A stretch of 64,000 bases of DNA from assembly GCA_049454295.1 (NCBI GenBank), contig JBMTYG010000001.1, forward strand, positions 17,454-81,453, in the 5' to 3' direction. The translations under genes were made by a program, and so were the position numbers. Below are positions 12,996 to 64,000 of this stretch, in pieces; within the stretch, counting starts at the first letter, position 1; each line of letters opens with the position of its first letter. This DNA comes from Pseudomonadales bacterium (GTDB lineage Bacteria; Pseudomonadota; Gammaproteobacteria; Pseudomonadales; Azotimanducaceae). The notes under the pieces are model-generated. The model had not been told where the DNA came from. It did not search any database and saw only the letters and a list, made by a program, of their open reading frames with translations.

Positions 12996-13073
12996 GACCC
13001 CTGCAGACCGGTACGGTCAACAGGCTATACTGCGCCGCTTGCTCGAGCCTCGTCGTAACAGGAACTGCCACGC

Positions 13074-13202
13074 ATGCGCTGGATCTTCATAGGGCTGATC
13101 ACGCTCCAGGCTGCCACCTGTGGTCAGAAGGGTCCGCTCACGTTGCCTGACGCGGGCGCGCGACCGGCTTTCGCAACAGCTGCAAGCACCAGCGAACGCT
13201 GA
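13074..13202 (+). CDS. lptM: Small lipoprotein LptM (YifL/LppL family), 42 aa, absent from the ORF track
   Basis: Own translation: MRWIFIGLITLQAATCGQKGPLTLPDAGARPAFATAASTSER. The C-G-x-K-G-P-L-x-L-P motif right after the lipobox Cys is the hallmark of this family. It sits directly upstream of lysA-dapF, its usual position. Confidence 0.8.
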   Translation: MRWIFIGLITLQAATCGQKGPLTLPDAGARPAFATAASTSER

Positions 13203-13221
13203 CCGGGCATGGCACCGTTTC

Positions 13222-14520: not shown

Positions 14521-14524
14521 CACC

Positions 14525-48163: not shown

Positions 48164-48185
48164 GTTCAGGTCTCTCGACTCGATA

Positions 48186-49923: not shown

Positions 49924-50967
49924 CTAGAGGAAATTGCTCGCTAACCAGAGCGCAGCGCCGGTTGCCGCCGCGACCATGAGACCGATGATGAGGTTGCGGC
50001 GTCCAGAGCCACTCCCTTTAGCTTTGCCCGGGCGCGAGGAGGCGGGGCTCTTAGCGCGGGCCGCGCTGCCGTACAAGCGAATCTCACATTCCACCTGAGC
50101 GAACCGCAGCTTGTCGCCCTGCTGGAGATAGCTGATCGTCGTCTTATGTCCGTTCACCCAGGTGCCATTAGCAGACATCTGGTCAATGATGCGCCAGCGC
50201 CCGCTCTCTTCGACAATTTTCGCGTGGTAGGCGGACACGCCGGAAAACTCGAGGCGAATATCGCGCTCTTCCGCCGTGCCGATGGTCCACTCCCCTCGAC
50301 CCTCAACGAGGGCAAAGGCCATGCCCGCTGCCGGGCCTGCCACAATCACCAGGTGCGGTCCCTCGATGTGCATGGGCGCAGGCGCCTCGCCGGGGGTAGC
50401 AGGCGCATTGCCACCGCCTTCCGCCAGAGCGCGCATTTCCTCCGCCGAGAGGATACGCGTACCCTCCCCCTGATAGTCCGGGTCCGCCCAACTCCTCGGC
50501 ACATGGCTCTGCAATGCCTCGGCCTCAAACCGCGGCGCGGCGGGAGCAGGCTCAGGGGCTGCGGCTGCGGCTTCAGGGGCTGCCGCTGCCGGGGTTGCGG
50601 GACGCATCACCGTCGCGTCAGGCTCTGGAGAACGGCGAATGACGGTGACGTCAGCGTCGTCGACTGCTTCCGCTTCCGGCGCCTCGACCACAAAGGACGC
50701 GAGATCAAACGCAACCCGATCGCCTCGATAGAGCAATGTGCGTGAGGCAATGCGCTGCCCGTTAACCGTCGTGCCGTTCGCGGAACCCAGGTCCTCGACC
50801 CACAAGCCATCGTCATCCAGCGTGAGCATCGCATGGCGTCGCGAAGGATGCCCTTCCGTTACCTTGAGCGCCGCATCATCACCGCGCCCCACAAGCGTCG
50901 GACCACGAATCTCGGTGCGATCGGAACCGCCCGGGTCATCGCCTTTGATCAGAAAGAAACCGCTCAT
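49924..50967 (-). CDS. Tail-anchored protein with two FHA domains
   Basis: FHA1 LVGRGDDAALKVTEGHPSRRHAMLTLDDDGLWVEDLGSANGTTVNGQRI. Ala/Pro linker. FHA2 TIGTAEERDIRLEFSGVSAYHAKIVEESGRWRIIDQMSANGTWVNGHK. C-terminal TM RRNLIIGLMVAAATGAALWLASNFL. The ATG overlaps the PP2C stop (ATGA). Confidence 0.88.
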   Translation of the reverse strand: MSGFFLIKGDDPGGSDRTEIRGPTLVGRGDDAALKVTEGHPSRRHAMLTLDDDGLWVEDLGSANGTTVNGQRIASRTLLYRGDRVAFDLASFVVEAPEAEAVDDADVTVIRRSPEPDATVMRPATPAAAAPEAAAAAPEPAPAAPRFEAEALQSHVPRSWADPDYQGEGTRILSAEEMRALAEGGGNAPATPGEAPAPMHIEGPHLVIVAGPAAGMAFALVEGRGEWTIGTAEERDIRLEFSGVSAYHAKIVEESGRWRIIDQMSANGTWVNGHKTTISYLQQGDKLRFAQVECEIRLYGSAARAKSPASSRPGKAKGSGSGRRNLIIGLMVAAATGAALWLASNFL

Positions 50968-51749
50968 GAGGATCTCATCCACATCCAGATTGAAAACGCC
51001 AGAACCCCGACCAGGGCACCGGCCAGCACGGGGATCCACGCCGAAGATACCGGAGAATAACGGATCACGATGGCCGTTGCGTCATCACCGCCACGCTGCG
51101 CGCGCACCGCTTCGATCAGCGCATCCGCACACGCCTGCGGGTCGTCCGTATCGGCAACGATTTCCGCCATGCGGCGATCATTGAGCTCGCCGGTCACGCC
51201 GTCCGTGCAGAGCAGCAGAAGATCATCCGGTTCAAGCTGCATTCGGACTTGGTCGATACTCGGTTGCTCAAACCCGAGGCAGCGCAGCAGCACATTGCGA
51301 TCCGGGTGGGTCTCAGCCTGCGCAGGGCTAATGCGTCCCTGCTGCACCATCTGCTGCACGAGAGAGTGATCCCGCGTCAGCCGTCTTAGCTCTCCATCCC
51401 GCCACAGATAGGCGCGACTGTCGCCTACCCACGCAATGCGTGCCTCTCCGCTGCGCTGCTCGACATGCGCAGCCACCACCGTGGAACCCATTCCTCGACG
51501 TGCCCGCACTTCGCTACCTTTGCGCACGACGGCTGCATGGGCGTCAGCAATGGCATCGACCAATCCGCGCTTCCGCTCTACTGCGAAGAGCACGCTGTCT
51601 CGAGCTACCTGGCTTGCAACATCACCCGCCGCGTGGCCGCCCATGCCATCGGCGACGACCCAGACGCCACGACCCGGGAGCGCGCCGTGGGCGTCCTCGT
51701 TCACCTGATGACGTACCCCGGTGAGCGTCTGCACGCCATAGCTGGTCAT
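50964..51749 (-). CDS. Tail-anchored PP2C-family Ser/Thr phosphatase
   Basis: VNEDAHG, VVADGMGGHAAGDVAS, LLLCTDGVTGEL, GGDDATAIVI. C-terminal TM WIPVLAGALVGVLAFSIWMWM. Starts 5 nt after the stop of the c554-like cytochrome gene. Confidence 0.9.
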   Translation of the reverse strand: MTSYGVQTLTGVRHQVNEDAHGALPGRGVWVVADGMGGHAAGDVASQVARDSVLFAVERKRGLVDAIADAHAAVVRKGSEVRARRGMGSTVVAAHVEQRSGEARIAWVGDSRAYLWRDGELRRLTRDHSLVQQMVQQGRISPAQAETHPDRNVLLRCLGFEQPSIDQVRMQLEPDDLLLLCTDGVTGELNDRRMAEIVADTDDPQACADALIEAVRAQRGGDDATAIVIRYSPVSSAWIPVLAGALVGVLAFSIWMWMRSS

Positions 51750-51754
51750 GGCGT

Positions 51755-53020
51755 TCAGAGACTGGCCGCAAGACGGGTCATGGCAACCCGGAATTTCGCC
51801 GGATCATAGCTGCGGTCTGTTTCGACAGTTGCGAACACCGCATCCAGCGCGCCCTGCAGGCGATCGTGGTCGCCGATGTGGTAAGACAGACTTTCAATGC
51901 CGAGAAACGCCTGCTCGGCCGCAGCGAAGTCGGTGAGCGTTCCATTCGCGCCCATCTGCCCGATTGCCTTACGCACCGCCAAGGCCTGGGCAGCGGAGGC
52001 TTTGCCCGTGGTCCAGGGCTGACTGTCGATCCAGCGCGCAAGTTCCGCTGCCGCTGTGCGCGTTGCCGGTACGCTCTGCTGCCCGGCTTTGAGATAGGCA
52101 ACCTGAAGCCGCCGCAAGTTGTCGAGCTCAGCGGGTGCAAGCACGCTGGCGACCGCCCGCAGCATATACAGATGCTGGTCCTGTAGACGCAGACCGCCAG
52201 GCTCAAGGCCCTGTTGACGCCGCTCCTCAGCCCAGCGCAGATCGTCCATCGGGTGATGACAGCTGTGGCAGTCGAAGAACGCAAAGTCTGGCACACCCTC
52301 GCGCAAGAGCGGGGTATTCAGAAGTTCGAGGTGCCGACGGGCGCTTTGCAGCTGTCCTGCGCGCCAGACGTCGAACCCACTCGGCTGCCCCTTGCGCTGC
52401 ACATAATCTTCGTCGACCCCATAGTGCGCGGGCTGATTCACCGTATACGCCTCAAGCTCGAACGATAGGCGCGGGTGGCCTGCGCCCATGATGCGGTGTG
52501 TGGCGAACTGGTTGCCGGTCCCAAGGTGACAGGACAGACAAACTTCGGCACGGACGTTGATGTCCTCGGTCGCGAGCATACCCTTGGCCAGATTGTCGGC
52601 ATGACGCGTGCCGGGTTCGGTGTGGGTTTCAAGCCAGAGCTCCGCACCCCCATGACAGGCTTCGCAGCCAACGCCGTCGGACAGCTGGAACTTGGGTCCA
52701 CGCTGCTCCGCCGGCACATTGTCGGCGTGGCAGTCGAGGCAGATCTTCGCCGTATGCGCACTCGGCAAACCGAGCTTACGCGCGATCGCCTTGGACTCCG
52801 GCGTGAGCAGTGTTTGATAGGCTCCCGAGTGCTGGTCCTCGGAAGACCAAATACGGTACTCATTCAGCCAGACGTTACTGTTCGCCTGCTCCTCCAGCTT
52901 GCCATGACACACACCGGTCGCGCAGCTCGCCACGCCCATGTGCTTGCGCGAGTCCAGCGGCTCGGCAGCGGCAGGCAGCCCCACCAGCAGCAGCAGCAAA
53001 AGCGCGGCGCGTCCCATCAC
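51755..53020 (-). CDS. Periplasmic multihaem c-type cytochrome (cytochrome c554-like N-half, helical C-half)
   Basis: Signal peptide AALLLLLLVGLPAAA. Four CxxCH (CLDCH, CEACH, CLSCH, CHSCH) plus one CX4CH-like site (CATGVCH), all in the first about 260 aa. Start GTG 53020 or ATG 53017, overlapping the upstream stop. Confidence 0.8.
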   Translation of the reverse strand: MMGRAALLLLLLVGLPAAAEPLDSRKHMGVASCATGVCHGKLEEQANSNVWLNEYRIWSSEDQHSGAYQTLLTPESKAIARKLGLPSAHTAKICLDCHADNVPAEQRGPKFQLSDGVGCEACHGGAELWLETHTEPGTRHADNLAKGMLATEDINVRAEVCLSCHLGTGNQFATHRIMGAGHPRLSFELEAYTVNQPAHYGVDEDYVQRKGQPSGFDVWRAGQLQSARRHLELLNTPLLREGVPDFAFFDCHSCHHPMDDLRWAEERRQQGLEPGGLRLQDQHLYMLRAVASVLAPAELDNLRRLQVAYLKAGQQSVPATRTAAAELARWIDSQPWTTGKASAAQALAVRKAIGQMGANGTLTDFAAAEQAFLGIESLSYHIGDHDRLQGALDAVFATVETDRSYDPAKFRVAMTRLAASL

Positions 53021-56000
53021 CGGCCACCTCCTGCCATTGGTTGCTCGGGCATGGTCTCCGGGGTCGCGACGGGCGCCGGCTCTGCCGAGGGCATCGCGTT
53101 GGTCACGGACCAGGGCTTGCCGTCCTTCAAGTAGAGCCGATGCATCTCAGGCAGCGTGAAGGGCCGCGAACCACGACGCCCAAACACCGCTACCTGGCCA
53201 CCCGTTTCATCGACGCCCCGGTCGCGCTCCAGCCCCTTCGACAGCGACAAGGCCGGCGTCGTGGTCGGGAAGTGGGCGATGAGTCGAGGATTCGGTTCAG
53301 GGCTGAATCCGTAGAATTTGGGCTGCAGTTCCGGCGAGGTGAGTTGCAGCACCTTGAGTCCGCCCGCGCCGTCAGCCACATAGGCGAACAGCGAGGCATT
53401 CGTTGAGGCCACAACCACGTCGCGCGCGTCCACCAAACGCCCATCGGCATTGAACTGCCGATACGCGCGCATAGCCTCCGGTCGCTCGACATCTACGATC
53501 AGTACACCGTCACGTCCCGCCGCAACGTAGGCATAGGTACGCGACACAAAGACGCCGTGCGCGTCAGCCACTGGGACCGTGTTGTTAGGAACCAGGCGCG
53601 GCACCTCCGGCTGGGTCACGTCCACGGCCTTTAGACCCTCGGCGTCTGTCACAAACAGATAGCGGAATTGCAGCGACGCCCCACGCGGTTCCACCAAGGG
53701 AAGCGTTGCCGTCAGGGTCGGCGCCAGCGGGTTATCCACATTCACGATCACGAGCGCCGCGGGCGTTAGCACATAGGCGTAGTGACCGCCCAGGGTAATG
53801 AAGCGTGCGCCGTTCAACACGCCACCGGGGTTCCAGGTCGCCCCGCGCTTGAGGAAGTTGTTGCGCGGTTCGCCGTCGACCAGTGTGTCGACGTTGACGG
53901 TGATCAGCCCTTCTTCAGCGTCGGTGATGAACATGTAGCTGTAGATCGGGTGGATCGGCTGCTCCATGTTGGTGACGCGCATGAGTTCGCCTTCGTTACG
54001 CGCCGGATTGACCGGCTGGTTCGTCGGCAGCGCCATGCAGGTCGCGTTCTTCGACTCCACCCGCGTGTCATGACCAAGCGGACTGAACGGCGCCGTGATG
54101 ATGCGTTGGGAAATGCCCTTATTCGAGACACTGGCCGCATCGAATACGCGCGTGCCCTCGGATCCAGCGGCCGCAAACACATATTCGCCGCGCAATTGCA
54201 CGCAGTGGATCGGCCCGCTCGGGTGGTTGTAGCCGTGCTCGAGCTTCTGACCGCGCGTTTCGTGATCACGGAACCAGTCCGGATACGCATAACGATGCAG
54301 ATAGCTGCCAATGACTGCCTGAGGCTCATCCCACTCCGTCACCTGCACCGCTTCGAGCGAGCCTTCCGCGCCGACCCAAGCGTTGTAGCCGATGAAGTTG
54401 ATGAAGTTGGTCCCGAACATGAGCAGCTGCGCCATGATCGCGTTGTTGTCATTGCGTTCCGAGATGTGGCAGTCCTCGCACATCTTGGTTTCGGTCTTGC
54501 GTTCCGTGTGCGGATAGTGGGGGTTGAAGGCCTGCGAGGAATAACCGCTTGAGGCAATCGGCGGCTGCTGAATATAGATCTTCTCACGGTTCGCATTGGT
54601 CGAGGACAGGACCAGCGCCGACGTCGAGCGCACCGGCGCAATCTTGCCGCTCTTCGACGGCTCACGCATGCCGAGCAGGAACATGTCGTCCCGCGCCACC
54701 TGCGGGTTGTAGGTCGCGTAATTGCGGCTCTCACCGCCCTCGTAGTGGTGCCGCTCGGTCTTCCAGTTCGCTTCGATCGGCAGATGGCAGCCGCCGCAGG
54801 ACGTCGTCCAAGAGGTATGACAGGTGTAGCACTCCATGTTCTCATCGGAGTGCGCAAGCTCACCGCTTGGCACCTGAGGACCCCATGTCTGTTTGGCCGT
54901 GTCGCGGCTCATCAGCTTGGATCGCGCGGCCACCGGGTTAAAGGCGGGATTGCCCGGCGTGACGGAGTCCTTGACCAGCGACATTTCCCACTCGAGCTTG
55001 GGATCCAGCATGGAGCGCTGATAGAGCTTGTCGCCGATCCACTCAAACCGACGCCGTCCGTCCGGCGTCCGCAGCGTCGTCAGATCCATTCCGCCTTCGA
55101 GCGCAGCTGGCCCCGAGGTGTACAGGTTGGGGTACGACTTCGCCGTGCCATGACAATCCTTGCAGCCGATCTCGACGGCAAGCGCCACCTCGCCATGAAT
55201 GTGGCCGTTGCCGTGGTTGTCCTGAGAGAAATGACAGTCGACACAGTGCATGCCCACATCCACGTGAATCGATGACATGTGCACGGCTTTGTCGAACTTC
55301 TCTGGATCCTCGTCCGAGACCTTGTTGCCCTCGGCATCGAGCAAATTGCCTTTGCGATCGCGCTTGAAGATCGCGCGGAAATTCCATCCGTGACCGTGGT
55401 AATCCGCGAACTGGGTGTCCGAGAGCTGCGGGTTCAGGTCGGATACGTTCTTCAGGAATTCCACATCCGCCCATTTACCCCGGGGCGCGGCACCCTCTGG
55501 GTTGCGATCGAGCGTCTTGCGCACCTCTGCATCGCTTGGGTACTGCTGCTCCTCCGGCCACATGTGCGGCGCATCGGATTCATAGTCCCACATGGTGTAA
55601 CCCAGATAGGTGTTCATGAACATGTTGGGCTGGTGCATGTGGCAGATCATGCATTGGCTGGTCGGGATCGCGCGGGTGAAGACATGCTGCAGCGGATGCC
55701 CGGTGCGATCCTTCGGAATGGTTGGGTCCAGCGTGATGCTCTTGCCCTCGTGACCATGCTGCGCATAGGGCCCGGAATGCCGGGGATCACGATCATTGGC
55801 ATAGACCACATGGCAGGAGGCACAGCCCGAATTGCGATAATCACCCGGTTGATCATTGGTACCCGAGAACCACAGGAACGGATCATTCAGACGGGTCTTG
55901 GTGATGTTGATGAGCGGCACTGAGATGCGAGCGCCGGTCCCAGGACCACGGTTTGACTGACGGATGTCGGGACGCCCAGGCTCCTCAATGCGTTGCAGCT

Positions 56001-56817
56001 GGCCGAGCGAATTTGGCAGGCCTGTCTCTGGAAACAGATTGCTGATGTTGCGCCCGCCACGCTCGAACACGCGGAAAATGTCGCCGGGTTTAACCGTCTC
56101 CCAGGTCGGAAGCGGGTAGAGATAGGGCAGCACGCCCTTCGCTTCCATTTCATCCTTGAGCTCATCCGGCACCTTCGGTCCATAGAGAATCGAAGGCTGT
56201 CCGTCGTCGGTATAGGACTCGCCGATCATGTAATTCTTGAACGGCAAAATGCCGTTGTTATACGCGGCTCCACCCCAGAGCATGGCGCCCGTCGCATGGA
56301 GGCTGCGAATGGATGCCTCGATTATTCCTTGGTGACACGCGCCACAGGCGAGAGAAGCCACGCGATTGTCCGACGGGTTAGTGAAGCGTATGAATTCGCG
56401 CGACTCGCGGTTTAGCAGCGTGTACGTGCGTTCGGGGTTGGCGCTCGAGGGGTAATGCCAGTCATCCGGGTAGCGCGGCAGCACGTGCGCCTGTTCCTGA
56501 ATCGCCGTGTATTGGGCGCTGCCCGCGGGGACACCCTCCTTAAGGGATACACCCGCATTGCCGCCATGACAGTCAGTACAACCGAGGCGTACCGCCGGGT
56601 TTACGTGCATGGTCTTGGTATCAGACTGGGTATGGCAGGAGATGCAGCCCTCACTTTTTGCTGCCGCTTGGGCCACGGTCTGACGTTCAGGCGCGGCGGG
56701 CGCCATAACGTAATCACGCTCGACCGCCTTCGATGCAGAACTCGCCCACGCCGCCGGAAGCGCGCCGACCGTGGCGAGAACGACAACGAGACTCTTGACC
56801 AGTGTTCGTTTGTCCAT
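53017..56817 (-). CDS. 1266-aa secreted decahaem c-type cytochrome fused to a C-terminal LVIVD-repeat (beta-propeller) region
   Basis: Signal peptide LVVVLATVGALPAAWA. Ten CxxCH between residues 58 and 785: CISCH, CTDCH, CGACH, CASCH, CMICH, CVDCH, CKDCH, CYTCH, CGGCH, CEDCH. C-terminal repeats are described in the next entry. The start codon shares 1 nt with the porin stop (TGATG). Confidence 0.85.
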   Translation of the reverse strand: MDKRTLVKSLVVVLATVGALPAAWASSASKAVERDYVMAPAAPERQTVAQAAAKSEGCISCHTQSDTKTMHVNPAVRLGCTDCHGGNAGVSLKEGVPAGSAQYTAIQEQAHVLPRYPDDWHYPSSANPERTYTLLNRESREFIRFTNPSDNRVASLACGACHQGIIEASIRSLHATGAMLWGGAAYNNGILPFKNYMIGESYTDDGQPSILYGPKVPDELKDEMEAKGVLPYLYPLPTWETVKPGDIFRVFERGGRNISNLFPETGLPNSLGQLQRIEEPGRPDIRQSNRGPGTGARISVPLINITKTRLNDPFLWFSGTNDQPGDYRNSGCASCHVVYANDRDPRHSGPYAQHGHEGKSITLDPTIPKDRTGHPLQHVFTRAIPTSQCMICHMHQPNMFMNTYLGYTMWDYESDAPHMWPEEQQYPSDAEVRKTLDRNPEGAAPRGKWADVEFLKNVSDLNPQLSDTQFADYHGHGWNFRAIFKRDRKGNLLDAEGNKVSDEDPEKFDKAVHMSSIHVDVGMHCVDCHFSQDNHGNGHIHGEVALAVEIGCKDCHGTAKSYPNLYTSGPAALEGGMDLTTLRTPDGRRRFEWIGDKLYQRSMLDPKLEWEMSLVKDSVTPGNPAFNPVAARSKLMSRDTAKQTWGPQVPSGELAHSDENMECYTCHTSWTTSCGGCHLPIEANWKTERHHYEGGESRNYATYNPQVARDDMFLLGMREPSKSGKIAPVRSTSALVLSSTNANREKIYIQQPPIASSGYSSQAFNPHYPHTERKTETKMCEDCHISERNDNNAIMAQLLMFGTNFINFIGYNAWVGAEGSLEAVQVTEWDEPQAVIGSYLHRYAYPDWFRDHETRGQKLEHGYNHPSGPIHCVQLRGEYVFAAAGSEGTRVFDAASVSNKGISQRIITAPFSPLGHDTRVESKNATCMALPTNQPVNPARNEGELMRVTNMEQPIHPIYSYMFITDAEEGLITVNVDTLVDGEPRNNFLKRGATWNPGGVLNGARFITLGGHYAYVLTPAALVIVNVDNPLAPTLTATLPLVEPRGASLQFRYLFVTDAEGLKAVDVTQPEVPRLVPNNTVPVADAHGVFVSRTYAYVAAGRDGVLIVDVERPEAMRAYRQFNADGRLVDARDVVVASTNASLFAYVADGAGGLKVLQLTSPELQPKFYGFSPEPNPRLIAHFPTTTPALSLSKGLERDRGVDETGGQVAVFGRRGSRPFTLPEMHRLYLKDGKPWSVTNAMPSAEPAPVATPETMPEQPMAGGGR
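53323..54216 (-). other. LVIVD-type repeat region (at least 6 repeats) of the 1266-aa cytochrome
   Basis: Residues about 868-1165: IHCVQLRGEYVFAAAGSEGTRVFDA; IYSYMFITDAEEGLITVNVD; GARFITLGGHYAYVLTPAALVIVNVDNP; GASLQFRYLFVTDAEGLKAVDVTQP; AHGVFVSRTYAYVAAGRDGVLIVDVERP; ARDVVVASTNASLFAYVADGAGGLKVLQLTSP. Confidence 0.7.
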
Positions 56818-58709
56818 CAGTACGCAAGCACCAGGTTGAAAAGGATGTAATCCGCTTCTTCATCCGGGAACAGGTCGTCCCATCCCTTGCCCGGCAACAG
56901 CCGCGCCCAGGACGCCCGCAACACCACGTTCTGGGTCATGAACGGCCGGTAGGTGAATGACACCGACACGTCATGCCCGATCTCCTCATCAATAGGCGCC
57001 TGATTGCGCGCCGCTTCCAGCACTTCGGTACGATCGAAGCGCAAATAATTCCAGTTCACGCTCGCGCGAAGTTCAGGCAGCACATCGAGATCGACCCCGC
57101 CGCCCACCAGCCAAAGCCCTGGGTTGGTGAAGTTCGACTGGCCTTCCTCTTTCGAAGAACGCAGCGAAGGCAGCACGCCATTGCGGCCGGACAGGGCCAC
57201 ACGACCACCACCCACCAGCGGCACCGCCTGACGGATCCAGTAGCTCGTATCGGCACCCGCAAATTGGGGGTTCTCGAAGATCGCGTCGAACCCGTTGTCC
57301 TCATCGTCGTAGGGATCTTCATCGCCCGTTGCGTAGAGGAACGAGAGTCGCGGCCGAATCCAGCTGAAATCCATCGACGCTTCCGCCGCGAAAAAGCCTG
57401 CGGCGATATCGACCTTGCGATCGACGAAAGTGCCGGGGTCGCCCTCGCCAACGGCGAGGTAGGCGGATGCGGTCAAGTTGAAACGACCAAAATGTCCATC
57501 GCCGTTCAAACCGACATAGGTGACCTCATACCCCCGCGGCCGCTCGCCGCCGACCGAGGCTGGGCGCTGGATAAAGCCGTTTTCGTCGTAATAAAAATCG
57601 TCGTCCTCGCGGTTGCTGTTGTGCATCACCGTCGCCTGCGAGACAAAGCCCTTAACAGGGAAGTCCTGCCAATACACATTGGCAGCGATCACATCGTCAT
57701 CGCGAACGGATTTGGCCACATCGTTAAGACCGCTATTGGTGTCCTTTTCGAGACGTCGAAACCAGGCCAGGTTGTACTGGAAGACGTTATTCGAACGATT
57801 TCCGAAGAGACGAACACCCAGCTGATTGTCCTGAAACAGGAAGCCACGGAAATCTGAGGAAAACGGCTGGATGCCGACACGCAGACTGTCGAAATCATAG
57901 CGATCGGACACGTTTCGCAAATGCTTGTCGACAAACAGCGCTTGAATACCCACGTGTTCATCCGTGCGGTCCTCGCCGTGGCGCGGGTTCACGTTGACGC
58001 CCTGGACTTCTTCCAGCTCGACATAATTGACGTTGAACACGGGGATAAACCGGAATTCCCAATCCGGCGGGCGGAACACGGTGTCACCCTGGTAATACAC
58101 GAACTCGAGCGCCACGTTCTCGACCGCGACGAGCTGCTCGGGTGCGCCGAAGATACCGAGTCCGCCAGGACCCGCTGTGGAATTGCCGCCCACCGGGGTC
58201 GGCACGTCACGGATCTCGAGCACGCTGTCCGAGATCACGCCCAGATTGAAGAACCAGTCATCGTGGATCGGCCGATCACCTTTCAGCGTGTTCTGGTTGT
58301 ACGGATCCCACCAATTGTCCGGGTAGCCGAGCGTGTTCACGATGCGCCAGCGGTCGGGCAGCGGCACACGGTCTACATAGTCCGGCAGCCCGGGTCGCGG
58401 CACGACCGAAGCCGGGTTGGGTTTACGATCTGCCATGGCCGGAGAAATGCGCTGCCACTCGGACTGGCGAATGCGTCGACGGGTCGCCGCATTCGATACG
58501 GGCGCAGCTGCCTCGGACGCCGTATCACTCCCCTCGGCTGGGGCCGGGCAGGGCACAGGCTTGAAGCCGGGACGCCGGCGCTGAACGATGCGACCCTCGT
58601 CGTTCTGGTAGCACACGGCCTCCGCGGCTACGGCGGTTGGCGCCCAAGGTAGCGCGAGCAGCAGCGCCGTGCTGCCACCCAGGAGCAGCCTGCTTACTTG
58701 TTTACGCAC
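56817..58709 (-). CDS. Large outer-membrane beta-barrel protein (putative porin/sheath of the cytochrome cluster)
   Basis: Signal peptide RLLLGGSTALLLALPWAPTAVA. WWDPYNQNTLKGDRPI, then several hundred residues of alternating hydrophobic/polar strands (FFNLGVISDSVLEI, VALEFVYYQG, WEFRFIPVFNVNYVEL, FQYNLAWFRRL, VSVSFTYRPF) ending in aromatic ..FNLVLAY. Start GTG 58709 or 58751; either overlaps the upstream gene. Confidence 0.75.
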   Translation of the reverse strand: MRKQVSRLLLGGSTALLLALPWAPTAVAAEAVCYQNDEGRIVQRRRPGFKPVPCPAPAEGSDTASEAAAPVSNAATRRRIRQSEWQRISPAMADRKPNPASVVPRPGLPDYVDRVPLPDRWRIVNTLGYPDNWWDPYNQNTLKGDRPIHDDWFFNLGVISDSVLEIRDVPTPVGGNSTAGPGGLGIFGAPEQLVAVENVALEFVYYQGDTVFRPPDWEFRFIPVFNVNYVELEEVQGVNVNPRHGEDRTDEHVGIQALFVDKHLRNVSDRYDFDSLRVGIQPFSSDFRGFLFQDNQLGVRLFGNRSNNVFQYNLAWFRRLEKDTNSGLNDVAKSVRDDDVIAANVYWQDFPVKGFVSQATVMHNSNREDDDFYYDENGFIQRPASVGGERPRGYEVTYVGLNGDGHFGRFNLTASAYLAVGEGDPGTFVDRKVDIAAGFFAAEASMDFSWIRPRLSFLYATGDEDPYDDEDNGFDAIFENPQFAGADTSYWIRQAVPLVGGGRVALSGRNGVLPSLRSSKEEGQSNFTNPGLWLVGGGVDLDVLPELRASVNWNYLRFDRTEVLEAARNQAPIDEEIGHDVSVSFTYRPFMTQNVVLRASWARLLPGKGWDDLFPDEEADYILFNLVLAY

Positions 58710-60718
58710 ACGTCCTCCTCGCTGCTGTCGCGGAACGGTGCCTGCGGGCACTGCACGTAGCGCAAGCGCACGTCGCGCGGTGTCAGCGTGTCCGCACGTT
58801 GCGCCCTGGGGGCATTGCCCACAGAGCCGTTGAGCGCAATGCCACCGTTGTGTGCGCCCAGAAACGCGATCATGTCGTCCTGATCGACGCCATCGCCCGA
58901 TACGCCAATACCGCCAACCAGCGTTGTGCCGCGATAGAGCGGTACCCCGCCAGGAAAGATCTGCAGCCCGTTGGCGAGCTGACGGCTATTGGTGGTCTGC
59001 GTTGCAACCAGTGACGCTGCCAGTTCGATGCCCGCGCAGTTCGTACCTACATCCGGAGTGCCTACCCCCGCGACAAACAGCACATGCTGGAGGATTGCGT
59101 TGTGCGCCAGATCGAGCTGCAATCCGGTCGAGAACGCGCTCCACTCGGCAAACGGCTTTGAGAGCGGGCCGTGTGGTTCGCTCTGCAGACCGTCCGGATA
59201 GAACGGACGCGAAAGATTGGCGATGCTGCGCTCGGCAAAAGCGATCGCGCCATCGCCAAGCAGCGTGGGCATGCCGGTGAAGGCGCGCAGGTCAGTGATG
59301 TAGGTGCCGATCGGGCTTGGCGTGAAACTGACGGCGTCAGAAGCCGTGGTCAAATACTGCGCCGCCGGCAGACCCGTTAGAAATTCCGCTGCGGTCGGGG
59401 CCGAAAACAGTGTCGCTGACCGCGCCTTCTGCAACGAAACGTCGGCACCAAACACGGGCGCGTCACGCGTGCGCACCATGCCAAGAATTTCCCCCCGGGT
59501 GTCGACTACGCTGATGGTAACCCGCGCCTGACTGCCGAGCGGACGACGGATCTGTGCGCGGGCACGATTCGCGACTGCAAGCGCCTCACGCAGGAGAACG
59601 CGCACCTCATTCTCCGAAAGCCCGCCATCGGTCCCCGCACGGGGCGGAAACCGGGGCTGATCGCTCGCATCAACAAAGATAAACGCGTCCTGCCCCGGGA
59701 AATCGACCGTGTCAGGTCTAATCCCCGAAGCCGGGTCGCCAAACGACACGCCCTGACGCAGGTTACCGTCCGTGTAGCCCGGCACGGGAACCAGCCCACC
59801 ATCCGCCGCAGTGAGCGTGCTGAACCCCGGCGCGGACGCCGGATCTCGCGCCAGATTGGAAAATTCAACATCGCTGAAGCGGAACGTCTTGCCGTCGACC
59901 GTAATCCGGTCCGCGCGTCGGTCCGGCGGTGCGGCAAACCCAAAGGTCGCGGCGGTGGCAATGAGTTCGTCCACATCGCGGTCGCTATCGGCGATAAATT
60001 TATCAAGGCTGTAGCGTCCATCTGCGATAGCACCGACGCCACCCACCACGGTGCCGTTTTTATAGAGCGGCATGCCACCGGGATCTGCAGACAGCCCAAG
60101 CGGCGACCGCTGCGGACCGACAGTGACCCCTAGTCCATCGGCGCGCTGCATGAAATCCGAGCAGGCAAGCTGGCTGAACTGGACGCCAAACAGCGGGCCC
60201 CCTGCCTGATCGCGCTCACCGGGGTTGAAGTGCTCCTGCACAATCTGGCCTGCCGTGCGGGTGGTGAAGGCGTTGCCCTCGCTCGAGAGATAAGCACCCG
60301 TGACCGCCTTGGCAATCGCTGCCTGATGGTCGAGCGCGAACGGCAGTCCCGGCTGCGGCAGTGCGATGCCCTCGAGCCCACCCGACACCGTGGCGCGCCC
60401 CTCGTCATCCGTCGCCGTCGCGATGAGCACAGGCAGCGGATCGGCGCCCATACGATAGACACCGAGGACATTACCCACCCGGTCAACGACCGCGAGCGTA
60501 GCCCGGACATCGCGCGCCTTTGCCTCAGCCACCCCCTGAGCCAGTACGCGCTCCACTTCGGCGACGGTCAGCAGCGTCGAGGTGTCGGCACAGGACCCGC
60601 TGCACCCTCCGCTCGGCGGCTGGCTGGTCCCGGTGGTGCTGCCGCTGCCACCTCCGCCACCGCAGCCGGCTAGCGCCAGAACGGCAATCAGGGCGGCAAA
60701 AAAGGGAGTTCGCATCAC
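58694..60718 (-). CDS. Lipoprotein with two GlcG/HbpS-like (DUF336, haem-binding/haem-degrading type) domains
   Basis: Lipobox AVLALAGCGGGGGSG. Domain 1: LTVAEVERVLAQGVAEAKARDVRATLAVVDRVGNVLGVYRMG..GGMPLYKNGTVVGGVGAIADG. Domain 2: LSENEVRVLLREALAVANRA..ARVTISVVDTRGEILGMVRTRDAPVFGADVSLQKARSATLFS..GGVPLYRGTTLVGGIGVSGDGVDQDDMIA. Confidence 0.7.
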   Translation of the reverse strand: MMRTPFFAALIAVLALAGCGGGGGSGSTTGTSQPPSGGCSGSCADTSTLLTVAEVERVLAQGVAEAKARDVRATLAVVDRVGNVLGVYRMGADPLPVLIATATDDEGRATVSGGLEGIALPQPGLPFALDHQAAIAKAVTGAYLSSEGNAFTTRTAGQIVQEHFNPGERDQAGGPLFGVQFSQLACSDFMQRADGLGVTVGPQRSPLGLSADPGGMPLYKNGTVVGGVGAIADGRYSLDKFIADSDRDVDELIATAATFGFAAPPDRRADRITVDGKTFRFSDVEFSNLARDPASAPGFSTLTAADGGLVPVPGYTDGNLRQGVSFGDPASGIRPDTVDFPGQDAFIFVDASDQPRFPPRAGTDGGLSENEVRVLLREALAVANRARAQIRRPLGSQARVTISVVDTRGEILGMVRTRDAPVFGADVSLQKARSATLFSAPTAAEFLTGLPAAQYLTTASDAVSFTPSPIGTYITDLRAFTGMPTLLGDGAIAFAERSIANLSRPFYPDGLQSEPHGPLSKPFAEWSAFSTGLQLDLAHNAILQHVLFVAGVGTPDVGTNCAGIELAASLVATQTTNSRQLANGLQIFPGGVPLYRGTTLVGGIGVSGDGVDQDDMIAFLGAHNGGIALNGSVGNAPRAQRADTLTPRDVRLRYVQCPQAPFRDSSEEDVCVNK

Positions 60719-62391
60719 GGGTCGGTCTCCGTCGCGACGGTGGGGTGGAATTCATGGCAATCGATGCAGTCGACGGGGATCAGCTGCGGCTGATGGCGAT
60801 CGCCATGACAACTCACGCATTGCTGAATATCCGGCATCAGCACGTCGCTGCTCGCGGTCGACGTATCCGCTGCATGGCAGTCGAGGCACGCATCGTCCCC
60901 GGCGGCGTCTTGCTGGGTCAGATGCGCGGCGTGATCGAAACGCGCGCTGCGGAAAAAGTCCGGGGTTAACCGAACCGGCGCTACCTGATAACGCCCGAGC
61001 AGATCATCCGTATCGTGCACCGCGACCTGGTGACAAGTGACACAGCCCCGCACGGTAAACTGGGTTTCTGCCTCGCGCGCGGTGCGCTCTCGAGCACAGA
61101 TATACGCCGGACCGGTGCAGGTCTCTGCCTGACGCGCATGATCGGGCAACCGACGCCAGGTTCGCTTTGGCAGGTCGAGCGTTGGGTCCGCGAACACGCG
61201 CATGTAATGACCTTCCATCACCAGCAGCGCTTCGCTGGGATTCCCGTGCGGCAATTCGCGATCAGGCGCCGTGCGATCGAACTTGAGATCATGGCAGTCG
61301 CGGCAGTGCTGCTCCATACGAATGGGCGCGAAATGTTCGCCATCGGGCTGCAGGGTGTGACAATCGGCGCACACTAGCGCAGCCCCGGTCGTGAGGTTTT
61401 GCACCTTGCCCGGATCGAGATGCACGTCGTGCGGGTACTTGAGGTTTGACGGATCCACTGCGTCTGGTAATGGGCTCGACTGCCAGGTCCAATCGTAGGC
61501 GAAGCCTGTGCCCCGCCGCACGTGACTGCTGGTGAGCAGATCAACGGCAAACGGTGCGTGGTCCGCCTCGGAGAAACCGGCCACCGCCGCGAGCCGATTG
61601 TCCGGCCAATCCGGTTCGGCGTGACAGTCGGTGCAGAGCGTATCCGCGCGGATCACCAGATGCGGCGGCGTGTTGTGTTCCTTGTGACAGGACGCGCAGC
61701 GGACGGTATCGAGCCCCACATGGCTGTTGAGCGGCTCCGGCGCGTGGTTCGCCATCGCGCCATGGCAGGTCGTGCAGGCAGTGTCCGGCACTCGTTCGAA
61801 CGGCTTCACGTGACAGGCCTTGCAATCATCGCCCACCGCGACCGCGTGCGCAGGCAGCAATGGACCGCTAGACCAGACATCATCAGTGCTCCACCAGGGA
61901 ATCGCGTCGATATCCACTGCGAAAGGAAGCACGAGTCCAAAGAGCAGCACGATGCCCGCCAAGATCCACGCCGGGCGCCGACGGCCAAGCCGGGTCTGCT
62001 CGAGATCTACGGAGAACGCTGCCTCGAACGCTGCGGGTGAAACTTCTTTCTGCGGCTCTACCTCCAGCGCCCCGGCGAATCCCGCAGGGGGCTTTAGCAC
62101 CCGCACGCGCGCGCCGGCGAGCTCAAGCGTCTGCCCTGGTTCAAGGCGACCGCTGCCCACTGCCGCCCCGTCAATCGCAACGGCGCTGCCACGCACGCAG
62201 CGAACGTCGAAGGCCACCCCAGACGGCGTAAGCGTCACATGCTGCGGCGCCACGTCGGCGCCATACACCTGAATCACCGCGTCGACCGAACTGCCCAGCG
62301 TGACTGCAGGGACTGTGACCTCCCGATCGCGAAATACCGCGCTGGGTGTGCCGGGAAGACCTGAGATGAGTTCGCGCAGAAGAATTTGCAC
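60715..62391 (-). CDS. Inner-membrane-anchored decahaem c-type cytochrome (c3/c7-like repeats) with a cytoplasmic FHA-like N-terminal domain
   Basis: Residues 20-100: FRDREVTVPAVTLGSSVDAVIQVYGADVAPQHVTLTPSGVAFDVRCVRGSAVAIDGAAVGSGRLEPGQTLELAGARVRVL (FHA-fold pattern). RLGRRRP followed by TM AWILAGIVLLFGLVLPFAV. Ten CxxCH: CKACH, CTTCH, CASCH, CTDCH, CADCH, CRDCH, CVTCH, CLDCH, CVSCH, CIDCH. Confidence 0.8.
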   Translation of the reverse strand: MQILLRELISGLPGTPSAVFRDREVTVPAVTLGSSVDAVIQVYGADVAPQHVTLTPSGVAFDVRCVRGSAVAIDGAAVGSGRLEPGQTLELAGARVRVLKPPAGFAGALEVEPQKEVSPAAFEAAFSVDLEQTRLGRRRPAWILAGIVLLFGLVLPFAVDIDAIPWWSTDDVWSSGPLLPAHAVAVGDDCKACHVKPFERVPDTACTTCHGAMANHAPEPLNSHVGLDTVRCASCHKEHNTPPHLVIRADTLCTDCHAEPDWPDNRLAAVAGFSEADHAPFAVDLLTSSHVRRGTGFAYDWTWQSSPLPDAVDPSNLKYPHDVHLDPGKVQNLTTGAALVCADCHTLQPDGEHFAPIRMEQHCRDCHDLKFDRTAPDRELPHGNPSEALLVMEGHYMRVFADPTLDLPKRTWRRLPDHARQAETCTGPAYICARERTAREAETQFTVRGCVTCHQVAVHDTDDLLGRYQVAPVRLTPDFFRSARFDHAAHLTQQDAAGDDACLDCHAADTSTASSDVLMPDIQQCVSCHGDRHQPQLIPVDCIDCHEFHPTVATETDP

Positions 62392-62400
62392 AGCGCGCCC

Positions 62401-63270
62401 CTACCAATAAATGAAGGTGGAGAGGATGTGCACGATAAGTGCCACGAGGGTACCGATAGTGAGCGGCACATGCAGGTATAACCACGCCTTGAGCCAGCCC
62501 TGCAGGCGAATATCGGAACGCAGCCGGCGCAACACGGCCTGACGCCGGCAGAGCACCGCCAGCAGGTCTTGCAGCACGCCAACCTCCGCGCGTCGATCCG
62601 CGCGCGTCAGCCGGCCTGCGACCAGGTCGATCACCGGCGCCTGGTCGATATTTGGCTGGACACCGCCCTCAAGGGTCTCGAACGCGGAGCGGTCGCGTGC
62701 AGAGAGCTGCGCCGCGACACCGCCGCCTAAGGTGGTGCGTGCAATACTCGATTGCACGGCGAGCTGCACGTCGGCACTGGAACGAGCAGCCAGCTCGCGT
62801 CCCTTGCGATTCAGCTCATACAATTCCGCAAACAGCTCCGAGCGCCCATGCCCGGCGCGGAGCGTCGCAATCTGTAGCGGATAATTGAGGTAACCATACA
62901 GCCCGACGATGCCGCTCACGATGACGATAGACATGAGCGCCCACGCGAGCGTGTGAATATTCCAACCGAACTGGAATCCACAGTGCAGGGTCGCAAGCAC
63001 CCAAACCGCGAGACCCAGGTAGACATGAGCCGAGGTCCAACCCTGCACGGTACCAGAGCGCGCCCGATAGCTGCGCTTGCGAATTCCAAGCCAGGCGAGC
63101 CAGACAATCAGAAGCGCCGCCCAGGTGCCAAGGACATAGCCTTGCCAGGTACCTCCGTTCGGCGGCTCAGTAGTCTGGTGCGAAACATAAATACCAATGC
63201 CGCCCGCAATGCTGAACAGCCCCCACCAGAGATACCGATAGCTACGGTATCGGAGCAGATTAGCGAACAT
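62401..63270 (-). CDS. Five-TM membrane protein with two His-x13-His pairs (putative di-haem b, ferric-reductase-domain-like)
   Basis: Trimmed to ATG 63270 (289 aa). TM3 SAHVYLGLAVWVLATLHCG (H82/H96) and TM5 WLYLHVPLTIGTLVALIVHIL (H267/H281), each with exactly 13 intervening residues. About 130-aa soluble loop between TM4 and TM5. Confidence 0.65.
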   Translation of the reverse strand: MFANLLRYRSYRYLWWGLFSIAGGIGIYVSHQTTEPPNGGTWQGYVLGTWAALLIVWLAWLGIRKRSYRARSGTVQGWTSAHVYLGLAVWVLATLHCGFQFGWNIHTLAWALMSIVIVSGIVGLYGYLNYPLQIATLRAGHGRSELFAELYELNRKGRELAARSSADVQLAVQSSIARTTLGGGVAAQLSARDRSAFETLEGGVQPNIDQAPVIDLVAGRLTRADRRAEVGVLQDLLAVLCRRQAVLRRLRSDIRLQGWLKAWLYLHVPLTIGTLVALIVHILSTFIYW

Positions 63271-64000
63271 CGGACTGCAGCAGCCGAATGAACTGTTCAG
63301 GGTTGACGCGCTGGGCCGCACCCGTGGGGCACGCGCGCACACATGCGTAGCCCAATGGGTCATTCACGCAAGCGTCGCACTTGACCGCCCGTTTGCCCTG
63401 TTCTTTCGACCGCGCGTCCGGCGTGAATGAAGCCGGCTCGCCCGGACCCGGCCCGCGGCCGAACAAAAGCCATTGCAGCAGACCCGGCTTCTGCGGCGCA
63501 GCATAGGAGAGACGAATCACATCGTAGGGGCAGTTCGCTTCACAGTTGCCACAGCCAATGCAGGTATCAGCGATATAGACCTGCCCGTCTGCGGCACGGG
63601 AGATGGCGTTGGGCGGACAATCCTTCATGCAATGCGGATGCTCGCAGTGACGACAGGCGATCGGCACATGAATATTGGCGAAGGTCTTGCCCGCCGCGCG
63701 ATCCAGGCGCGAGAGCCCCTCATGGGTCTCGGCGCAGGCGCGCTCGCAGTTGTCGCAGCCGATACAGAGCGTCTCGTCAATCAGGAGGGTATCCGTTGCT
63801 TCACCGAGCCCTTCCTCGAGCAGGAAGCTCATGATGCCGCTGCTCTCCGGGCGCACCTCCATCTGCGTATTGTCCGTCAGCCGCGCCTGCGCCCGAGCCT
63901 GCAGCGCTTCGATGTTGGCGGACGGCAAATTCATCAGCGCAAGGAACTCCTTGCGGGATAGTTCGATGGTTTCCGTCGCCACCGTCGCGAGCGCGGTTTC
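63260..64000 (-). CDS. Ferredoxin-type protein with four [4Fe-4S]-like Cys groups (3' part; the reading frame stays open to the window end)
   Basis: CIGCDNCERAC, CRHCEHPHCMKDCP, CIGCGNCEANCP, CDACVND..CVRACP (DmsB/NrfC-like arrangement). The track start at 63982 is an internal GTG, and the frame continues upstream (..ETALATVATETIELSRKEFLALMN), so a further N-terminal domain lies outside the window. Confidence 0.75.
   Translation of the reverse strand, partial: ETALATVATETIELSRKEFLALMNLPSANIEALQARAQARLTDNTQMEVRPESSGIMSFLLEEGLGEATDTLLIDETLCIGCDNCERACAETHEGLSRLDRAAGKTFANIHVPIACRHCEHPHCMKDCPPNAISRAADGQVYIADTCIGCGNCEANCPYDVIRLSYAAPQKPGLLQWLLFGRGPGPGEPASFTPDARSKEQGKRAVKCDACVNDPLGYACVRACPTGAAQRVNPEQFIRLLQSDVR

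Follow-up and report, generated by a model that had tools for sequence, protein, structure and literature searches.

Most knowledge of electron conduits built of multihaem cytochromes that cross the cell envelope comes from organisms specialized in reducing metals or oxidizing iron, in which the conduits are attached to the quinone pool. In the MtrCAB and PioAB/MtoAB systems and in the Pcc and Ext clusters of Geobacter, an inner-membrane entry point, periplasmic multihaem cytochromes, a barrel and a large outer multihaem protein are encoded together, and the same general arrangement was found in the locus described here. It consists of seven genes (G1 to G7) on a stretch of 64,000 nucleotides from a Pseudomonadales bacterium of the Azotimanducaceae (GenBank assembly GCA_049454295.1, contig JBMTYG010000001.1, positions 17,454 to 81,453), the whole of which we refer to as the window. 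A further system, ptdABCDEFG, has been named as a putative porin-cytochrome complex whose function is completely unknown, and occurs in marine Alpha- and Gammaproteobacteria, Nitrospinota/Nitrospirales and Planctomycetota (Elbon et al., bioRxiv 10.1101/2023.11.21.568154). Its described parts are a flavin adenine dinucleotide (FAD)/NAD(P) oxidoreductase (PtdC), an iron-sulfur (Fe-S) protein that binds cyclic nucleotide monophosphates (cNMP; PtdE), a ferric-reductase-like membrane protein (PtdF), a decahaem cytochrome (PtdG), a porin, a tetrahaem cytochrome and an NrfA-like pentahaem protein (PtdA) whose C-terminal part is a beta-sandwich (10.1101/2023.11.21.568154).

We read the G1 to G7 cluster as encoding a regulated, quinone-independent chain that would export electrons outward and end at or beyond the outer membrane, a reading to which we assign a probability of roughly 0.5. 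The layered logic that a preliminary description of the window had proposed was borne out, as the genes encode in turn a cytoplasmic entry protein, a putative dihaem membrane protein, an anchored decahaem cytochrome, and a module made up of a lipoprotein, a barrel and two multihaem proteins. The system is real and very widespread, and a related operon (ptd) has already been flagged in the literature.

Gene organization and haem content

The preliminary description had placed seven contiguous minus-strand genes with near-zero spacing at 51755-64000, and all open reading frames and junctions proved to be as it gave them. Reading along the minus strand, G1 (63260-64000, the C-terminal 247 codons of the gene) overlaps G2 by 11 nucleotides, with the G1 stop at 63260 and the G2 start at 63270. 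G2 (62401-63270), a putative dihaem cytochrome b of 289 amino acids (aa) recognized from its open reading frame and hydropathy, stops at 62401, leaving a 9-nucleotide gap before the start at 62391 of G3 (60715-62391), a 558-aa protein in which motifs and Pfam matches indicated an FHA-fold domain, a transmembrane helix and a decahaem domain. G3 overlaps by 4 nucleotides (60715-60718) with G4 (58694-60718), which encodes a double HbpS/GlcG-like lipoprotein of 674 aa (Pfam, lipobox), and G4 overlaps by 16 nucleotides (58694-58709) with G5 (56817-58709), a predicted outer-membrane beta-barrel of 630 aa (AlphaFold2 model, Foldseek). The overlap is 1 nucleotide, at 56817, between G5 and G6 (53017-56817), a 1266-aa decahaem-LVIVD propeller protein (motifs, Pfam), and 1-4 nucleotides (53017-53020) between G6 and G7 (51755-53020), a pentahaem c554-like protein of 421 aa (Pfam, motifs). 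The end of the operon had been set at 51755 and has to be moved, because a PP2C gene starts 5 nucleotides after G7 and is followed by a double-FHA gene that shares 4 nucleotides with its end, the stop codon included. Judged from this spacing, the PP2C and double-FHA genes are translationally coupled to G7, and the whole is most likely a conserved operon of at least nine genes.

The 24-25 haem c sites counted in the preliminary description were recovered as 10 CxxCH motifs in G3, 10 CxxCH in G6 and four CxxCH plus one CxxxxCH in G7. The number of CxxCH motifs expected by chance, estimated from amino-acid composition, was far below one per protein. Motif counts were kept in orthologues, with 10 motifs in 75 of 77 orthologues of G3, all motifs in 46 of 46 for G6 and all, including the CX4CH, in 44 of 44 for G7, and the c-haem total is therefore 25.

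The guanine-cytosine (GC) content of the cluster was 0.59-0.65, the same as that of the remainder of the window, which is filled by genes for housekeeping enzymes. A mobile-island origin was ruled out on these two grounds, and we take the cluster to be chromosomal core DNA because its GC content is unremarkable and housekeeping genes surround it. A scan for promoter- and terminator-like sites inside the cluster returned none above expectation.

Distribution and synteny

One genome per species was scanned with an alignment of G3, which gave 165 genomes with a G3 relative, and the best 80 of these 165 loci were compared. Nearly all 80 were labelled Gammaproteobacteria. Cultured carriers among them were Steroidobacter gossypii, S. 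flavus, S. agaridevorans, Peristeroidobacter, Marinobacter salexigens, Salinisphaera sp. PC39 and Fontimonas thermophila, and uncultured carrier genomes were assigned to Povalibacter, Aquimonas, Oceanicoccus and Lysobacterales, with Oceanicoccus sagamiensis, Dasania marina and Woeseiaceae added by protein searches. The cultured carriers (Steroidobacter, Marinobacter, Oceanicoccus, Sphingobium, Fontimonas) are mostly aerobic heterotrophs, not known as metal respirers. Where proteins of the system that we encountered carried a descriptive name, it said no more than 'hypothetical' or named a generic domain.

The preliminary description had suggested a survey of gene neighbourhoods, and in this survey (tblastn) 38 of the 43 loci that were 21 kb or longer had the order G1-G2-G3-G4-G5-G6-G7, as befits a unit that is inherited together. 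All seven genes were found in 43 of the 80 loci, and in 41 of these 43 they were collinear on one strand. Typical identity to the window was ~70% for G6, 62% for G4 and G5, 60% for G1, 57% for G2, 52% for G7 and 42% for G3. Judged from this conservation of content and order, the seven-gene set is a genuine co-inherited unit.

All seven genes were also present on the 959-kb conjugative plasmid pMSHV of Sphingobium herbicidovorans (NZ_CP020539.1 802396-817324), at 29-59% identity. There they form two adjacent, oppositely oriented units, G1-G2-G3 with a metallophosphoesterase gene behind it, and G7-G4-G5-G6. Since these units stay adjacent even though split, we distinguish an inner module (G1-G3) and an outer module (G4-G7) that travel together. 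A calcineurin-like phosphoesterase takes the place of PP2C in the pMSHV copy.

The Sphingobium arrangement also bears on whether the cluster encodes one machine at all. G1-G3 and G4-G7 could be unrelated neighbours, or the whole could serve as a redox-sensing input to kinase, phosphatase and caspase signalling, as the separate and opposed transcription units of the two Sphingobium halves would allow; signalling genes, moreover, are always nearby and lie inside the cluster in three genomes. However, the halves remain side by side when they are split, the 41 collinear loci have overlapping stop and start codons, and 25 c haems together with a barrel far exceed any known redox sensor, and we consider such a division of the cluster very improbable.

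Inner module

The reading frame of G1 is open up to base 64000, the last base of the window, and the window copy is therefore a fragment. A 28.6-kb contig of assembly GCA_049443225.1 carries the same cluster, with proteins 98-100% identical and G6 identical, and on it full-length G1 is 848 aa (L001:1012-3558). A view of the first gene as a 240-aa ferredoxin is superseded by this 848-aa orthologue, in which FAD/NAD(P)H and two cNMP-binding domains stand ahead of the ferredoxin part. Of the cytoplasmic Fe-S entry point that had been proposed, the cytoplasmic entry therefore stood, but the protein is more than a bare Fe-S protein: it is an NAD(P)H dehydrogenase of the flavoprotein kind that also carries two domains for cNMP binding. 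Pfam placed Pyr_redox_2/3 at residues 5-320 and found two cNMP_binding domains and a Fer4 region. In the PDB, the N-terminus was related to thioredoxin-reductase (TrxR)-type enzymes and to ferredoxin-NADP reductases of the TrxR type, the middle to the tandem cNMP-binding domains of PKG/PKA, and the C-terminus, which is a four-cluster [4Fe-4S], HycB-like domain, to HycB (1.7e-20), NrfC and FdnH (4.3e-9). Across 64 G1 orthologues, both GxGxxG dinucleotide motifs, all 16 cluster cysteines, and the Gly-Glu and Arg of both phosphate-binding cassettes were conserved, and the full-length 848-aa sequence had no export signal or signal peptide. Because the cofactor motifs are conserved and an export signal is lacking, G1 is predicted to be cytoplasmic and a complete NAD(P)H-to-Fe-S module, equipped for a transfer of electrons from NAD(P)H to its four [4Fe-4S] clusters that cyclic nucleotides would control.

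Five hydrophobic helices were predicted in G2 from hydropathy, with a cytoplasmic insert of ~110 aa between helices 4 and 5. Two His-x13-His pairs had been reported for this protein, and all four histidines were invariant in 24 orthologues. The first pair, His82-x13-His96, lies on helix 3 (62983-63027, minus strand), and the second, His267-x13-His281, on helix 5 (62428-62472, minus strand), a stretch that aligns with helix IV, the HX13H helix, of FdnI from E. coli. G2 thus has the generic dihaem-b pattern of two histidines per helix, ~13 residues apart, on two predicted transmembrane helices. The positions of Arg/Lys-rich loops (positive-inside rule) put one histidine of each pair near either membrane face, His82 and His267 on the cytoplasmic side and His96 and His281 on the periplasmic side. 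As read from the alignment and the predicted helices, two stacked b-haems are classically held in this geometry.

G3 has a single helix at residues 143-161, followed by a periplasmic decahaem domain with its 10 CxxCH motifs, which matched the c3/c7/Paired_CXXCH families of Pfam. Ahead of the helix, at residues ~1-105 (62077-62391, minus strand), Pfam searches with family members revealed an FHA-fold (YscD-like) domain, with FHA (PF00498) in 17 of 20 members (best 3.7e-8) and Yop-YscD_cpl in 15 of 20 (best 3.2e-12); the window copy itself misses the FHA threshold (not within 0.01). This cytoplasmic domain, joined by one helix to the periplasmic decahaem, is closer to FHA folds of the YscD type. 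Against TIGR03508 (MtrA/DmsE), which has a cut-off of 192.2 bits, G3 scored 31.5 bits, and its weak NCBIfam matches to HmcA, TmcA and QrcA were far below their cut-offs. Searches of the PDB by sequence or profile gave nothing significant for G3.

Outer module

G4 had been described as a double-GlcG lipoprotein, and it does carry a lipobox and two HbpS/GlcG (DUF336)-like domains. The lipobox reads LALAGC, with Gly at +2 and a Gly/Ser-rich tether behind it, and its Cys was conserved in at least 90% of 63 sequences. Pfam HbpS-like matched in two stretches with 69.6 bits, and the PDB relatives were EfgA, 2a2l, 4nkp and the C-terminal domain of PduO.

The barrel, previously given as 644 aa, has 630 aa when counted from the start at 58709 that the junction in the preliminary description itself implied. 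The AlphaFold2 model of G5 (mean predicted local distance difference test (pLDDT) 67) has ~18 strands, as 19 strand segments of which two adjoin. Its top 17 Foldseek matches were to AlgE (6.5e-14; TM ~0.4-0.6), followed by OccD/OccK/OprD and ScrY, all of them 18-strand channels, and MtrB was not among the top 50. Pfam had no match for the window G5 and gave only weak matches to Alginate_exp (PF13372) in 5 of 25 orthologues, and sequence and profile searches of the PDB found no relatives. We model G5 as an outer-membrane barrel with the AlgE/OprD-like porin fold. The protein also has a conserved N-terminal Cys-Cys hairpin and a disordered linker. An insert of ~70 aa between strands 14 and 15 (residues 461-531; 57117-57329) is among its most conserved parts, is modelled with low confidence, and could be a plug or a docking site.

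The claim of a 1266-aa decahaem/LVIVD protein agreed with our results for G6, which, besides its 10 CxxCH motifs, has Pfam LVIVD repeats. The protein consists of a signal peptide of the signal-peptidase-I type, a decahaem domain of ~800 aa and a C-terminal LVIVD beta-propeller of roughly seven blades (53230-54387, minus strand; AlphaFold2 pLDDT 80-95). G6 is the most conserved of the seven proteins, at ~70% identity across gammaproteobacterial orders and 59% in Sphingobium, and more than 120 database clusters were at least 70% identical to it over the full length; this degree of conservation is in keeping with a catalytic function or with several partners. No relatives of G6 turned up when the PDB was searched by sequence and by profile, and PF22113 (the MtrC/OmcA domain) was absent from the window G6 at E <= 0.01, with weak matches in some homologues. 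A search of 1.84 billion representatives found 2836 relatives of the haem domain, mostly gene fragments, with 623 of the 2836 at E <= 1e-30. Full-length divergent relatives were 41-53% identical and up to 1702 aa long, included one from Planctomycetota and kept 9-10 haem motifs, and LVIVD repeats were present in all seven that were scanned against Pfam. Lipoprotein signals were found on four divergent members of the family (P0368, P0376, P0378 and P0382), the planctomycetotal one included. The window G6, by contrast, has an ordinary signal peptide and a separate, adjacent lipoprotein gene, G4. Two relatives differ in architecture: P0377 (1648 aa) has 28 CxxCH motifs, 18 extra haem sites being fused N-terminally, and P0498 (1284 aa) has a G5-like barrel sequence followed by a G6-like sequence, which could reflect either a fusion that exists in nature or a frameshift at the ATGA junction.

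G7 had been called a c554-like protein with 4-5 haems, in line with its match to Pfam Cytochrome_C554 (PF13435; 39.8 bits, cut-off 20.8) and with the match of the G7 orthologue profile to Nitrosomonas c554 (PDB 1bvb; E 1.4e-5). Its signal peptide is followed by a c554-like domain with five haem sites and by a C-terminal domain that is helical. The CX4CH motif, CATGVCH at residues 33-39 (52904-52924), was invariant in 44 of 44 orthologues, and for this reason we regard G7 as pentahaem and not tetrahaem. Its score against TIGR03508 was 20.4 bits.

Proposed electron path and competing explanations

If the cluster exports electrons, cytoplasmic NAD(P)H would reduce the FAD of G1, and electrons would pass along the four [4Fe-4S] clusters of G1 to the cytoplasmic-side b-haem of G2 (His82/His267). 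They would then cross the inner membrane to the periplasmic-side b-haem (His96/His281) and enter the ten c-haems of G3, which would be anchored beside G2. Pentahaem G7 would act as a c554-like shuttle, G6 would be the terminal and probably catalytic component together with G4 and G5, and an acceptor would be reduced at or beyond the outer membrane. Features of the outer proteins that are consistent with export are the lipobox-bearing relatives of G6, the predicted barrel G5, the Gly at +2 of the lipoprotein G4 and the c554-like character of G7.

The preliminary description held that the direction of flow could not be read from the sequence. We infer otherwise, since NAD(P)H at the inner end would make outward flow, which is downhill and pulled by the membrane potential, the only thermodynamically easy direction. 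Flow in the opposite sense, from an external donor (Fe(II), Mn(II), reduced humics or a cathode) through G6, G7 and G3 to NAD(P)+ on G1, does have precedents: electrons flow inward through MtoAB and PioAB, and complexes of the Hmc/Tmc type deliver them from the periplasm to Fe-S proteins in the cytoplasm. Haem potentials, moreover, are not fixed by sequence alone. Such uptake would, however, be doubly uphill, against both the inside-negative potential and the NAD(P)+ couple, in a cluster that encodes no energy-coupling module, and the cultured carriers are known as organoheterotrophs; we give it hardly any credence. Outward flow would cost NAD(P)H and proton-motive force, which would explain the presence of cNMP-binding domains, a kinase, a phosphatase and FHA switches. 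The bypass of quinones and the wasted proton-motive force argue against a main respiratory role, and fit the regulatory load and the aerobic heterotrophy of most cultured carriers.

Several points nevertheless weigh against electron export, the most general being that the electron-transfer steps, their direction, the location of G4, G6 and G7 and the physiological acceptor are all inferred from domain order and topology. A more specific group concerns G2, whose haem binding is putative and predicted from the histidine pattern by itself. Among the 24 orthologues, G2 reached no curated cytochrome b family in Pfam: matches to PF01292 occurred in 22 of 24 and were sub-threshold (best E 5.6e-6), a few orthologues matched DUF4405, and 3 of 24 matched Ferric_reduct weakly. 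The window G2, the only copy in which the PF01292 match was mapped, scored 11 bits against a cut-off of 30.1, with the match confined to the last helix. When the G2 profile was compared by hhalign with FdnI, MsrQ and CybB of E. coli, the outcome was negative, with probabilities below 1% for FdnI and CybB, after which membership of G2 in PF01292 or the ferric reductases was dropped, and sequence and profile searches of the PDB found no relatives. Given the lack of a curated match and the negative profile comparisons, we call G2 a putative dihaem cytochrome b of a new family, a member of neither the FdnI nor the NOX family.

The sole weak similarity of G2 is to the quinone-reactive FdnI/HydC family, and quinol may thus be the input. 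PF01292-family members react with quinones, and CbcL of Geobacter fuses such a domain to a multihaem cytochrome; in a quinol-fed form of extracellular electron transfer, G2 and G3 would act together like CbcL, and G1 would serve to sense redox state or cNMP, or as an auxiliary input, and not as the main entry. As the only family signal that G2 gave, the FdnI/HydC-type matches favour this arrangement, but they are sub-threshold and, in the window copy, limited to the last helix, and the hhalign probabilities point away from it. G1, for its part predicted to be a complete NAD(P)H-to-Fe-S module, shares 11 nucleotides with G2, is always adjacent to it and is conserved at ~60% identity, and the cultured carriers, as noted, are in the main not known as metal respirers. 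We therefore regard quinol feeding as unlikely and retain NAD(P)H as the probable entry point.

The FHA-fold domain of G3 adds a point on the regulatory side. Its consensus has Gly-Ser and Ala-x-x-His where the canonical residues are Gly-Arg and Ser-x-x-His, and because the canonical Arg and Ser are absent, phosphothreonine binding by this domain is doubtful.

The remaining points concern the outer module. In G4, no conserved His was found in the 63 sequences, so a haem-relay role for G4 is unsupported. In the AlphaFold2 model of G6 (1200 residues, from an alignment of 41 sequences with 72% mean identity), pLDDT stayed below 50 over the haem domain. The signal peptides of G6 and G7 are ordinary, and an exit from the periplasm is hypothetical. 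With ~18 strands in its model, G5 is probably too narrow to sheathe a folded cytochrome as does MtrB, a barrel of 26 strands. The complete conduit to the cell surface that had been claimed was thus not upheld, since G5 models as an AlgE/OprD-like porin and not as an MtrB-type sheath, and because G5 is probably too narrow, an end-point in the periplasm is a live rival to export.

In that case, G6 would be an enzyme that reduces a soluble compound, for example an oxyanion, an N- or S-oxide, peroxide or a chelated metal, G5 would be a substrate porin or product exporter and G4 an accessory protein or chaperone, and no electrons would pass the outer membrane. The nearest folds of G5 are indeed the substrate channels AlgE and OprD/Occ and not MtrB, and G6 and G7 have plain signal peptides. 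The constancy of G6 across orders and into Alphaproteobacteria is like that of an enzyme, while the presumed wire, G3, drifts to 30-45% identity. G6 has local similarity to ExtM/ExtN/ExtO (the 'selenite/tellurite reduction operon' models of NCBIfam), although for ExtM this amounts to 57 bits against a cut-off of 800 and the best stretch covers only ~50 residues. The fold matches of its propeller include a haem-plus-propeller enzyme, cd1 nitrite reductase (NirS), but the Foldseek matches as a whole (WD40, cd1 NirS, AztD) are generic. The equivalent terminal protein of ptd is described as an NrfA-like pentahaem (10.1101/2023.11.21.568154). On the other hand, no haem motif of a catalytic type such as CxxCK was found, divergent relatives of G6 are lipoproteins, as surface cytochromes are, and 25 c-haems are long for a purely periplasmic reductase. 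We consider a periplasmic end-point possible but, on balance, doubtful, and continue to favour a chain that would reach or cross the outer membrane.

Signalling genes flanking the cluster

The PP2C gene (50964-51749, minus strand) encodes a Ser/Thr phosphatase with a C-terminal membrane anchor (Pfam PP2C/SpoIIE; NCBIfam Stp1_PP2C 5.4e-58), and lay directly downstream of G7 in 35 of the 39 loci that reach that far. The double-FHA protein (49924-50967, minus strand) is membrane-anchored, matched Pfam FHA in two stretches (1.2e-29) and keeps the canonical GR, SRRH and NG; its gene is also called on the GCA_049443225.1 contig. Convergent with the operon is a gene for an exported Sel1-repeat/coiled-coil/caspase-like (Peptidase_C14) protein (48102-49913, plus strand; Pfam), and beyond it lies a gene for a Hanks-type Ser/Thr protein kinase (45676-47307, plus strand; Pfam Pkinase 5e-34). 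The kinase and caspase genes are found upstream of G1 in other genomes, the position of the kinase being variable. Three uncultured gammaproteobacterial genomes (L012, L013 and L014; ~11700-17500) have Sel1-caspase, Ser/Thr kinase and autotransporter beta-domain genes between G3 and G4. Together, the FHA-fold domain of G3 and the flanking kinase, phosphatase, FHA and caspase genes are additions to the preliminary description. A hydrolase-like open reading frame (47210-48316, minus strand) overlaps, in its longest form, the ends of both the kinase and the caspase genes; as the gene call on the GCA_049443225.1 contig is shorter (274 aa), it probably starts further inside this frame. Just beyond the kinase gene, at 43148-45634, lies the gene for an 828-aa protein that contains a DUF5916 domain.

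A speculative extension, which we think rather improbable, is that the system is a two-membrane counterpart of NADPH oxidase, gated by cNMP and Ser/Thr phosphorylation, that spends NAD(P)H and membrane potential to export electrons in aerobic heterotrophs. It could in that event be the missing enzyme behind the NAD(P)H-stimulated extracellular production of superoxide or reductant by marine and soil heterotrophs, or provide a 'burst' tied to the caspase-like protease.

At least 165 species-level genomes, from mostly aerobic Gamma- and Alphaproteobacteria, encode this 25-haem system, which comes with an NAD(P)H dehydrogenase and signalling switches of its own, and thousands of metagenomic protein clusters represent it as well. 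If it exports electrons, extracellular redox chemistry, including the reduction of metals, humics, oxyanions and oxygen, would extend to a wider range of organisms and habitats, and the pathway would be the first example of its kind gated by cyclic nucleotides and Ser/Thr phosphorylation. The system is directly testable because carriers have been cultured, for example Sphingobium herbicidovorans MH, Steroidobacter spp., Marinobacter salexigens, Oceanicoccus sagamiensis, Dasania marina, Fontimonas thermophila and Salinisphaera sp. PC39.

Comparison with known systems

None of the parts had been thought to have Mtr-type architecture, and this was confirmed, as family tests for MtrA/DmsE, MtrB/PioB, MtrC/OmcA and NapC/CymA all failed. 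Among the cluster gene products scanned with Pfam and NCBIfam, there was no match to the NapC/NirT/CymA tetrahaem quinol dehydrogenases. Unlike MtrCAB-type conduits, the cluster therefore has no MtrA/DmsE decahaem, MtrB/PioB barrel, MtrC/OmcA domain or NapC/CymA, and the predicted entry is cytoplasmic NAD(P)H, whereas it is quinol in MtrCAB and Pcc systems. The uet cluster of Tenderiales was rejected as a match because its LVIVD protein is separate and non-haem. Searches of open-access papers from PubMed Central and bioRxiv turned up no description of a multihaem-LVIVD fusion, an FHA-multihaem fusion or this cluster.

The composition of the cluster had been called unfamiliar, which holds for the outer proteins, as they differ from those of ptd; the logic of the inner module, however, has already been described for that system. 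The order ptd E-F-G matches G1-G2-G3, a likeness at the level of domain content, motifs and gene order only, taken from the description of ptd. A porin and multihaem proteins of smaller size are further parts that ptd has in common with the cluster. Parts like PtdC and PtdE are fused here in G1, with four clusters, where ptd has separate proteins and two clusters, and the counterpart of PtdG is the G3 decahaem encoded directly after G2. PtdF is ferric-reductase-like, whereas G2 has the dihaem histidine pattern, the weak Ferric_reduct matches in few orthologues and the negative MsrQ comparison given above. The terminal protein is the 1266-aa decahaem-LVIVD protein G6 here and the NrfA-like pentahaem with a beta-sandwich in ptd, in which no counterpart of the double-GlcG lipoprotein G4 is described. 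G7 is c554-like with a helical C-terminus and not PtdA-like, as the comparison of its profile with 5ze8, the cited homologue of PtdA, gave E 0.44. No ptd host species was among the 80 retrieved loci, and when the plasmid collection was queried with G3 and with that half of G1 which holds the cNMP and Fe-S domains, only the Sphingobium copies of the present cluster and unrelated HycB-like genes came back, and no ptd-type locus.

Other likenesses are to single layers of the inner module. A four-cluster ferredoxin placed on a membrane cytochrome b with an HX13H helix recalls the FdnH-FdnI and HybA/HyaC pairs, but in comparison with FdnH-FdnI the topology is inverted, with the Fe-S domain predicted to be cytoplasmic, G2 is not a detectable FdnI member and a quinone site is not inferable. 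As a cytoplasmic wire, the C-terminus of G1 is closer to HycB, its best match in the PDB. Hmc, Tmc and the Cbc complexes of Geobacter consist of a periplasmic multihaem cytochrome c, a membrane cytochrome b and an Fe-S protein, and the same three cofactor layers are predicted at the inner membrane here, although the NCBIfam matches of G3 were far below the cut-offs. Unlike in those complexes, the cytoplasmic partner is an NAD(P)H flavoprotein and not HdrD-like, and an outer-membrane module is attached.

In the way it would work, the inner module resembles the NOX/FRE/MsrQ-like enzymes, with electrons passing from cytoplasmic NAD(P)H through flavin and two stacked b-haems to an acceptor outside, and with gating by regulatory domains or phosphorylation. 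NOX enzymes combine NAD(P)H, flavin, b-haems held by two His pairs on two helices, and regulatory gating. The resemblance is functional only, since G2 has no significant Ferric_reduct match and the flavin domain of G1 is TrxR-type (Pyr_redox_2/3) and not FNR-type, and the cluster is not a NOX/FRE member. Relative to NOX/FRE, it adds an Fe-S wire and 25 c-haems. Taken as a whole, the cluster is a variant of the porin-cytochrome and transmembrane electron-transfer systems, set apart by its unusual NAD(P)H entry and its signalling control.

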